A program made the translations under genes and the position numbers. A stretch of DNA of 47,783 nucleotides from Promethearchaeota archaeon (GTDB taxonomy: Archaea; Asgardarchaeota; Lokiarchaeia; Sigyniarchaeales; SOKP01): the NCBI GenBank assembly GCA_013375475.1, contig JABXKD010000020.1:1-47783 (forward strand). Direction: 5' to 3'. Below, in pieces: positions 13,151 to 14,030 of this stretch; positions within the stretch are counted from its first letter, which is position 1; every line of letters starts with the position of its first letter. The notes beneath the pieces are model-generated. The model was given only the letters and a program-made list of their open reading frames with translations, did not search any database and was not told the DNA's origin.

Positions 13151-14030
13151 CTATTCCTTAGTTTCTTCATCAAGTTCTTTTTCTGATTCTAAAGAGATTT
13201 CAGAAACGTCTTCTTCTTCGACTTCATCGAACAACATTTTTTCTACCTCAGTTAATTCTCTTTCTTCCTCGGATACTTCGTAATCTTTTTCAAGTTTCGT
13301 TTTAGTTAATTCCGATATCTTTTTTGCTTGAACTTTTGCTAAAGCTTCATCGTTAATTTTAACTGTGTCGCCCATTCTTATATCTGCGTGCATAATCTTA
13401 ACAATAATCCCAAGAGTACCTGATTTTTGAATACATTGAGCTACTCCTCTGTCTACTCCTTCTTGAGCCGGGTGACCCGATTTTTTCATCGTGCCTGCCC
13501 TAAAAACCGTAGTTCGAGCTCGTTGTGAAGTTACTTTGCCAGAGACGATAATTTCTGTTCCTTTCGCACCGGAATCCATTATTTTTCTCAAAATGTAATA
13601 CCCGGCTCTTCTATAATGCCTTCCTCGATCTAACGAATACGCTAAACGCTCAGCCATAATTTGAGCGTTCAAATCGGGGTTTGGCACTTCTTCTACTTCA
13701 ATTTGGGGCATTAGGCTTAAGAGATTCGATATCCCTTAATTTTCCAGCCCAAATCGTTCTTGAAGAATGTCCGTAATCTCTTGAATACGCTTACCGCCTT
13801 TAAGCTAAAATGTCGAAACGACATTTAAATTTACCTATGACGAGTCCCGGTCGGGACGTTCTAAGCGTAATTCTTACTCCGAGTGGGGTTTTTTGTATAT
13901 CAACACCAGCAAACCCTGCCCGTACGAGTTCAGATCTTAGGTATTCGTTGATTTGCATCAACTTGATGCCCTGCTCAATTTCACTTCGCGGGAGTTTTCC
14001 TCTTGCGATAAAGTGTTTAGCGAGTGGCAC
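13151..14030 (-). CDS. rps3: 30S ribosomal protein uS3, four predicted exons: 14030-14010, 13979-13831, 13799-13741, 13710-13151 (262 aa spliced)
   Basis: SD GGTGA (14040-14036) + GTG at 14030; joined exons give MPLAKHF|IEQGIKLMQINEYLRSELVRAGFAGVDIQKTPLGVRITLRTSRPGLVIGK|GGKRIQEITDILQERFGLE|MPQIEVEEVPNPDLNAQIMAERL...; 789 nt continuous frame; expected operon position. Confidence 0.9.
13711..13740 (-). other. Putative BHB-like mRNA intron 3 in rps3 (30 nt, carries an in-frame TAA)
   Basis: ATTAAGGGATATCGAATCTCTTAAGCCTAA; 9-bp stem TTAAGGGAT/ATCTCTTAA, exon pairing GGGC/GCCC; central helix imperfect. Confidence 0.75.
13800..13830 (-). other. Putative BHB/BHL mRNA intron 2 in rps3 (31 nt, frameshifting, inside the KH GxxG loop)
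   Basis: ATTTAAATGTCGTTTCGACATTTTAGCTTAA; stem AAATGTCG/CGACATTT; helix AGGT/GCTT each followed by AAA; removal restores IGKGGKR. Confidence 0.8.
13980..14009 (-). other. Putative canonical BHB mRNA intron 1 in rps3 (30 nt, in frame)
   Basis: ATCGCAAGAGGAAAACTCCCGCGAAGTGAA; outer GCTAAA/TTGAGC, central CACT/AGTG, bulges TTA and AAA, inner TCGC/GCGA + GAG/CTC; absent from the upstream duplicate HFIEQ. Confidence 0.8.

Follow-up and report, generated by a model that had tools for sequence, protein, structure and literature searches.

How a cell obtains an intact ribosomal protein uS3 from a gene that is broken within the loop of its own KH domain is the question raised by a 47,783-nucleotide (nt) contig of a Promethearchaeota archaeon (Lokiarchaeia, Sigyniarchaeales; assembly GCA_013375475.1, contig JABXKD010000020.1, positions 1 to 47,783, hereafter the window). 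The uS3 gene of this window lies on the minus strand, as do all the uS3 features given below, in a cluster of archaeal ribosomal protein genes, and a 31-nt insertion at 13800..13830 (site b, intron b) interrupts the KH-domain GKGG loop. Sequence comparison leads us to regard positions 13830-13800 as very probably an intron of the uS3 pre-mRNA, of a relaxed bulge-helix-bulge (BHB) type excised by the endonuclease EndA, and, of the three mini-introns that the gene would contain, the middle one.

The break itself is a frameshift: the incoming frame reads ...PGLVIGK and then TAA, and the outgoing frame, GGKRIQEI, is offset by one base. The first-pass annotation, which was made from the letters of the window, had proposed a hairpin-bearing intron at this place, and the elements it listed were all found. 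A perfect 8-bp stem is formed by AAATGTCG (13826-13819) and CGACATTT (13815-13808) around a TTT loop (13818-13816); AGGT (13836-13833) and GCTT (13805-13802) are each followed by AAA; and the putative outer strands CGTC (13842-13839) and GGCG (13798-13795) are present. The TAAA repeat at the borders, said to leave the boundary ambiguous, appeared as a 4-nt ambiguity in an alignment with 16 uS3 loci of the same genus, in which the insertion, exactly 31 nt long, was found in this genome alone (1/17). A pairwise alignment with the closest relative, G014, delimited the same 31-nt insertion, and the window over 13683-14300, both small insertions included, is matched without a difference by a 2,924-nt DNA contig that comes from a different sample of the same study.

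To define the borders we used the canonical BHB layout, in which an outer helix, a 4-bp central helix, a 3-nt bulge, an inner helix and a loop are followed by the mirrored strands, and in which each 3-nt bulge is cut after its second nucleotide, a layout derived from the pre-tRNA case (motif definition as given in PMC5829648 and preprint 10.64898/2026.10.13.758758). At site b the exonic strand of the central helix, H(a), is AGGT (13833..13836), composed of the third base of an Ile codon and a Gly codon, and it pairs with the intronic GCTT, H(b). The 5' bulge AA^A (13832-13830; the caret marks the cut) directly follows the exonic strand, and the intron then comprises, from 5' to 3', the third bulge nucleotide, three unpaired U, the 8-bp hairpin, UA, GCTT and two bulge A (13801-13800). 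The rule yields an intron of 13830-13800, the very interval of the first-pass annotation, and rebuilds the Lys codon from AA and A.

Comparable insertions occur in at least 13 other uS3 alleles (L012, L093, L094, L104, L117, L118, L128, L136, L191, L216, L220, L265 and L267). Including this genome, we counted eight distinct inserted sequences at site b, 12 at a downstream site c and two at an upstream site a, all 30-32 nt long, and L118 has an additional, 32-nt insertion at a fourth site, where the uS3 C-terminal domain is encoded (L118:1501-2500). Within the genus, a uS3 match was obtained in 40/42 genomes, and a shortened frame located away from a contig end was seen only in this genome and in G008 (carriers G000, which is this genome, and G008 among the 39 matching genomes of genus g1). 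Seven carriers (G097, G098, G107, G109, G130, G134 and G146) were found among 53 matching genomes of genus g20. Across the family, 130/135 genomes gave a uS3 match and the loci with short frames were fetched; insertions occur in at least nine species, a lower bound, since alleles with an insertion only at site a or only at site b are inconspicuous in a table of frame lengths. Insertions were present in 5/37 close relatives among metagenome contigs (L104, L117, L118, L128 and L136) and in 3/51 genome contigs (L191, L216 and L220, the loci of G134, G130 and G109). A census of the motifs over loci, with some redundancy between the collections, gave a site-b insertion in 6/113 and a site-c insertion in 8/110; after de-duplication, 12/100 distinct site-c regions carried one. 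No comparable insertion was seen in uL22, uS19, uL29, p29, uS17 or uL14, in 43-104 loci each. The acidic tail of the L118 protein also contains a seven-fold tandem EPSSDV repeat.

The homologues at site b differ in sequence and keep their pairing. The structures that we tested were derived from the same sequences on which they were scored, a limit that applies to all of the following values. In a six-row alignment (five distinct sequences), 87.3% of cells were paired, five pairs were changed on both sides, and the covariation score was reached by 0/500 shuffles, with 28-43% of cells paired in controls with slid partners. With eight distinct rows, 84.9% of cells were paired as compared with 27-42% in the slid controls, and the score was reached by 1/500 shuffles. 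The central helix, half of which is exonic, was paired in 90.6% of cells in the eight homologues. Its pair 15-50, which joins the third base of the Ile codon to the base after GCY, is U-A in four, A-U in three and unpaired in one of the eight, and the core of the stem switches from G-C to A-U and from U-A to A-U or C-G. RNAalifold, supplied with no structure, recovered both the central helix and the stem. The claim of a relaxed BHB- or BHL-like (bulge-helix-loop-like) intron that has to be removed exactly is thus supported by eight distinct insertions in the same codon, among which compensatory changes maintain the central helix and stem.

Removal at the positions given by the rule also restores the protein. 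With its three inserts taken out, the uS3 gene of the window becomes a frame of 789 nt, encoding 262 amino acids (aa) with a single terminal stop, and the product is identical to the intact uS3 of G014 at 256/263 aligned positions (six substitutions and one gap), even though the exon DNA of the intron-bearing part differs from G014 by about 20%. The same procedure applied to ten alleles and 17 insertions of 30-32 nt (two at site a, six at site b, eight at site c and one at the fourth site, d) produced an open frame of 258-299 aa in 10/10, and VIGKGG was restored in all six site-b alleles tested. At the fourth site, in L118, the central helix is GUGC/GCAU with bulges AA^U and AG^A, and a cut placed from structure only gives an AAA Lys codon, as in the GAKG of relatives.

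The two neighbouring insertions in the window fit this pattern to different degrees. Intron a (13980..14009) is 30 nt long, in frame and open, with a near-canonical BHB geometry: CACT pairs with AGTG in the central helix, TT^A and AA^A form the bulges, and TCGC/GCGA is an inner helix that abuts both. It would be translated as ARGKLPRSEI, between HFI and EQ; the site-a insert of L104, also 30 nt, contains two stop codons and has an inner helix of 9 bp. Intron c (13711..13740), 30 nt between GLE and MPQIEV, begins with an in-frame TAA. For this site RNAalifold predicted a hairpin of 9 bp and, formed by 13756-13747 with 13709-13699, an exon-exon helix of 10 bp; each strand has 7 nt between the two, the spacing of a 4-bp helix plus a 3-nt bulge in an hBHBh' form. 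The central helix of site c is poor (U.U or U-A; G-C, A-U or G-U; G-C; and invariably A.G). Over the 12 sequences, 89.5% of cells were paired (range over analyses, 89.5-95.8%), and 8/9 stem pairs were changed on both sides. A register with a central helix GGCU/AGCC would need a 7-nt bulge; given the predicted exon-exon helix and the 7+7 spacing, the preferred register is the one that gives Met in all 12 alleles, the two registers being indistinguishable from sequence alone.

Site c also provided a comparison between alleles with and without an intron. The exon-exon helix is formed with 9-10 of its 10 pairs in 12/12 intron-bearing alleles as compared with 12/88 intron-less ones, and at a silent Gly third position a G-C pair is found in 12/12 intron-bearing alleles as compared with 15/88 of the others. 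Because the helix is near-complete in 12/12 as against 12/88, the silent exon sites are constrained only when the intron is present, which points to an RNA structure spanning both exons.

These data also bear on programmed bypassing, which had been offered as an alternative. Bypass elements, such as the gap of phage T4 gene 60 and the "byps" of yeast mitochondria, are hairpin inserts of tens of nt with matching flanking codons; they remain in the mRNA and require matched take-off and landing codons. Here the mRNA would keep the 31 nt and peptidyl-tRNA-Lys would hop from AAA at 13832-13830 to AAA at 13801-13799. The matched codons do exist in this allele, exactly 31 nt apart with the hairpin between them, and L117 has the same arrangement. 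This part of the proposal stood, but it does not extend to L118, L136 and L216/L220, in which the Lys codon is split and the take-off codon is AAU, so that Asn would replace an invariant Lys. Moreover, the codon following take-off is UUU here rather than a stop, the only matching AAU at site c lands in the wrong frame, and L117 lacks a matching codon at that site; none of the site-c inserts examined offers matched codons in the correct frame. Unlike in bypass elements, most homologues lack the codon match, and what is conserved is the set of BHB helices; the compensatory exon-intron pairing and the silent-site exon-exon helix would be left unexplained. We consider bypassing extremely unlikely.

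The least probable of the rivals, to which we give almost no weight, is that the pieces are translated separately, or that a +1 frameshift carries the ribosome through the 31 nt. In favor of separate translation, the piece after site c begins with ATG in this genome (TAA, then ATG 27 nt further on), but the corresponding codon is TTG in G008, L117, L128 and L136, and L128, with a 31-nt insert, is frameshifted as well. The 31-nt insert is followed by no start codon, and a TAG stands two codons ahead of the point at which the outgoing frame resumes. Read-through would introduce about ten foreign residues into the GKGG loop.

A DNA hairpin resembling a miniature inverted-repeat transposable element, inserted with a TAAA target duplication and unrelated to RNA processing, is highly unlikely. 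The 4-nt direct repeat at the borders, the internal inverted repeat and the sporadic occurrence among relatives are what such an element would leave. However, a blastn-short search with the insert and its flanks against all 288 contigs (3.9 Mb) detected no other copy, further matches being at most 17 nt long, which excludes a multi-copy element for this genome; the homologues sit at one codon in different lineages rather than being scattered; their lengths vary between 30 and 32 nt; and the conserved pairing includes exon bases. Even if the hairpin was DNA-borne, its removal from RNA would still be needed for uS3 to be produced.

The EndA-type intron that we favor would require an enzyme that accepts relaxed motifs, a point that the first-pass annotation had tied to the subunit architecture of EndA. 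The genome carries two genes with the EndA domain (PF01974). The first (L002, ORF at 1453-2055, 200 aa) has as its best match the catalytic subunit of the A. pernix heterotetramer (3p1z_B, E = 1.8e-35) and keeps the Tyr, His and Lys positions, and in the alignment its KPR falls on K44/R46 of the Crenarchaea-specific loop. The second (L003, ORF at 1435-2043, 202 aa) has Ser at the position of the catalytic His of M. jannaschii, and its product is read as a putative structural beta subunit. The two paralogues thus make up a predicted (alpha-beta)2-like set, with a lysine in the specificity loop of the alpha subunit. RtcB is encoded as well (score, 560.7 bits). According to the available part of PMC3241643, the Crenarchaea-specific loop and K44 allow non-standard and BHL introns to be cleaved, and that of PMC5829648 states that relaxed motifs are removed by (alpha-beta)2 and epsilon2 EndAs only and assigns the (alpha-beta)2 type to Asgard/TACK; the accessible portion of preprint 10.64898/2026.10.13.758758 gives two EndA paralogues for 44/60 Asgard genomes.

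In the mechanism that we propose, exonic AGGU would pair with intronic GCUU in the transcript to form the 4-bp central helix, with an AAA bulge after each strand, the 8-bp hairpin serving as inner helix and a poor outer helix. The two-subunit endonuclease, composed of a catalytic alpha with the loop lysine and a beta that lacks the His, would cut after the second nucleotide of each bulge, and RtcB would ligate the exons, so that AA + A again form the Lys codon and the GKGG loop is reconstituted. We infer that the uS3 mini-introns are cleaved and ligated.

Several observations weigh against an intron at site b. On its own the sequence folds unexceptionally (minimum free energy -14 kcal/mol, z = -1.35, with 21/200 shuffles equally stable), and the weight of the site-b hairpin is on comparative data, not on the single sequence. 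This copy is non-canonical, with three extra U on the 5' side and UA on the 3' side separating the central helix from the stem, and two of the four pairs of its AGGT/GCTT central helix are G-U. The outer helix requires a 2x3 internal loop and is paired in 71.9% of cells among the homologues, a weakness that agrees with the relaxed outer side proposed at first. L267 is unpaired (U.U) at the covarying pair, and the intron-bearing alleles are mutually related, so that the counts above overstate independence. A strict genome scan for canonical BHB motifs that join two long open reading frames (ORFs) yielded 19 hits as compared with 17-26 in three shifted decoys and thus no enrichment, a scan that would miss relaxed motifs such as those of sites b and c. 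By hand analysis, the inner helix at site b of L216/L220 and of L136 directly adjoins a 5' bulge of exactly 3 nt, and we class the site-b motif as a relaxed, HBh'-like form of BHB.

Parts of the window are contained in 21 sequencing runs from marine sediment and similar metagenomes, four of which were compared, as assembled contigs. Two of them are RNA runs, whose contigs span the window only in part and neither establish nor refute splicing. One RNA-library contig, X20, joins 13830 to 13798 and omits exactly the 31 nt. It is weak (256 nt, depth 2.1, a short side of 28 nt), 12/220 of its aligned bases differ from the window, and it retains the site-a insert. X20 may be a partly spliced mRNA, or may equally be nucleic acid of a relative, about 5% diverged, that has no intron b, and we counted it neither for nor against splicing.

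An Rfam search over the whole length of the window gave no matches at the gathering score, to group I or group II introns or to any other family; the 31-nt length is also far below the size of a ribozyme intron. ARAGORN found no match in the window.

The history of the locus was read from its comparison with G014, which is 96.5-98.1% identical over two blocks flanking uS3 and 91.6% identical over a third. Over these blocks the sizeable insertions relative to G014 are of 31 nt, 30 nt (13711-13740) and 2.6 kb (13980-16576), all of them in uS3. Mismatch to G014 stays near 1% downstream of 13400, rises to about 6% in 13400-13700 and about 20% in 13700-13979, and is again near 1% upstream of 16577. 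From these steps we conclude that a single imported tract includes the 5' part of uS3 with the three insertions, a GGTGA and GTG start of the tract's own, and a 2.5-kb cassette. We infer that the intron-bearing 5' part of uS3 arrived by recombination from a diverged relative, and the pattern suggests that the recombination was homologous on one side only, within uS3, with an illegitimate joint on the other. A search for the donor with a degenerate peptide pattern spanning site a gave no hits in the metagenome and genome contigs; exon 2 reaches no more than 85% identity with its best available match, so that the donor is unsampled.

The same tract is what a dead or dying gene might look like, that is, a uS3 that in this metagenome-assembled genome is a pseudogene or a non-viable variant of the population. 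Three interruptions and a 2.6-kb insertion are concentrated in one gene, all in the tract that diverges from G014, and the estimated contamination of the assembly is 6.4%. Against this, it is the only uS3 locus in a bin estimated to be 100% complete, the exon DNA has diverged by about 20% with the protein conserved and without any other defect, and the tract brings its own GGTGA and GTG start. Furthermore, at least 13 other alleles, which come from different studies, are interrupted at the same sites with the structure kept, and the frames of 10/10 tested were restorable. A pseudogene is therefore very unlikely, if the least so of the rivals considered here.

The question of how far the preferred reading, EndA-spliced mRNA introns, extends beyond uS3 was addressed by a census of insertions relative to G014 (490,528 nt fetched, 339,596 nt aligned), which yielded 26 indels of at least 12 nt. 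Among these, the two uS3 inserts were the only ones recognised as hairpins inserted into a coding frame; for the remaining 24 indels the coding context was not examined. With the scan for canonical motifs showing no enrichment either, introns in mRNA do not look general in this genome, and uS3 would be a special host. An AA^A junction is common to sites b, c and d, and a GCY-type 3' element to sites b and c, which would fit a spread by reverse splicing or by ligation into similar mRNA sites. That the uS3 mini-introns form a small, still-active Asgard BHB family, gained, lost and moved between species, in the present case along with a recombined segment of the gene, is a tentative idea to which we assign a low probability; splicing might then also gate the expression of uS3 or of the ribosomal-protein operon.

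ARAGORN called only 29 tRNA genes in this genome, whose bin is rated 100% complete, 14 of them with an intron. Many tRNA genes were probably missed by the program on account of non-canonical or multiple introns, and the proportion of 14/29 is weak evidence that fits an intron-rich set of tRNAs.

The complete gene can be laid out as follows. Exon 1 (14010..14030) starts with GTG (14030-14028), five bases downstream of GGTGA (14040-14036), and the same GGTGA-N5-start layout is present in relatives; intron a is followed by exon 2 (13831..13979), which encodes the first part of the KH domain, and the Pfam KH_2 match to this upstream piece ends at the break. After intron b come exon 3 (13741..13799; GGKRIQEITDILQERFGLE), intron c and exon 4 (13151..13710), which encodes the C-terminal domain (Pfam Ribosomal_S3_C) and the stop codon. 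A family search found the uS3 C-terminal domain once in the whole genome, which makes this the sole uS3 locus. The bin has 3.92 Mb in 288 contigs, with 32% G+C, an estimated completeness of 100% and a contamination of 6.41%. In the window the gene order is uS19, uL22, three unknown ORFs, uS3, uL29, RNase P p29, uS17, uL14 and uL24. Promethearchaeum syntrophicum MK-D1 is a distant relative (50% identity over the query). The uS19 gene (window 17183-17716) encodes 177 aa, with an N-terminal extension of about 75 residues ahead of the Pfam domain; in relatives this extension contains acidic insertions that vary. In L269 (G133), L272 (G120) and L273 (G092), runs of N cover the 5' half of uS3, from the end of uL22 to the region of RHYRRAGYY, and these may reflect assembly breaks caused by strain-level presence and absence of mini-introns.

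Upstream of the working uS3 start lies the foreign cassette (14050..16576), which is not found in G014. Its ORFs are 14287-14715, 14767-16041 and most of 16301-16609, and none matched an informative family in Pfam or PHROGs. The first 11 codons of the resident uS3, identical to those of G014, persist as a relict (16577..16609) that is now fused to foreign sequence in an ORF of 102 aa. A large intron as the explanation of the 2.6-kb insertion was rejected: inspection by hand showed borders that are not complementary, and the downstream copy starts from a GGTGA and GTG of its own. The cassette ORFs of 142 aa and 424 aa (14287-16041) also occur between uL22 and uS3 in L093 (G107) and L094 (G097) of genus g20. 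In G107, part of an open frame of 3,377 codons shares 56% identity with the 424-aa protein, which also matches modules in other giant frames, of up to 13,771 codons (G016). G014 (C131:13575-19468) contains about 5.9 kb that are extra relative to window positions around 20149-20161, and this segment encodes a distant homologue (26% identity) of the 424-aa protein. In another comparison, of G014 (L075) with this genome (G000, C111:12848), an insertion of 50 nt in G014 contains two GC-rich hairpins, both short, and several further insertions of 0.8-4.8 kb distinguish G000 and G014 (C242, C288, C188, C111 and C281).

EndA-spliced introns in protein-coding genes of archaea are known essentially from cbf5 alone, and the gene in question here is an essential and universal ribosomal one. 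If our assignment is true, an mRNA is matured by the tRNA splicing machinery in the nearest archaeal relatives of eukaryotes, and a splice-dependent transcript is tolerated where transcription-translation coupling is thought to operate. The alleles with and without each intron would then be material for the study of intron gain and loss; should the family indeed be active, it would be a natural system for intron gain and loss, and for splicing selection on exons, among the closest prokaryotic relatives of eukaryotes. In annotation, uS3 genes of this kind will be labelled as frameshifted or as pseudogenes, and uS3 is a standard marker for completeness and phylogenomics. A full-text literature search, with subscription journals outside its scope, gave no report of uS3 introns or of Asgard mRNA introns, and the two Asgard papers (preprint 10.64898/2026.10.13.758758 and PMC11291895) treat, in their available parts, tRNA introns only.

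Among known systems, the nearest is the BHB intron of cbf5 pre-mRNA in Desulfurococcales and Sulfolobales (Crenarchaeota), whose splicing was demonstrated experimentally (PMC2738675, available part). Both would be short introns removed from a protein-coding transcript by the tRNA splicing endonuclease, with a BHB-type motif and a patchy occurrence among related lineages, and the heterotetrameric enzyme of the cbf5 hosts has a predicted counterpart here. The uS3 introns differ in gene and in phylum (Promethearchaeota), and in that up to three occur per gene, at four positions, 30-32 nt long and polymorphic; their splicing is deduced from sequence, whereas that of cbf5 was demonstrated. As in HAC1/XBP1 (PMC11747266 and PMC2965688, in their accessible portions), a very short intron bounded by stem-loops would be cut by a protein endonuclease and closed by RtcB-type ligation with a change of frame; the nuclease there is IRE1 rather than EndA and the process is stress-regulated, and homology is not implied. 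Lastly, the motif at site b resembles the HBh', hBH and BHL introns in tRNAs of Thermoproteales and Asgard archaea, in that it is relaxed with one well-formed side (PMC5829648, PMC3241643 and PMC11291895, as far as their available parts describe these), and like non-canonical tRNA introns it would need a broad-specificity EndA with a conserved lysine in its loop (PMC5829648 and PMC3241643). Unlike in those cases, the host RNA is an mRNA, in which removal has to be exact to the base for the frame to be kept and in which the exonic half of the motif is constrained by its coding function.

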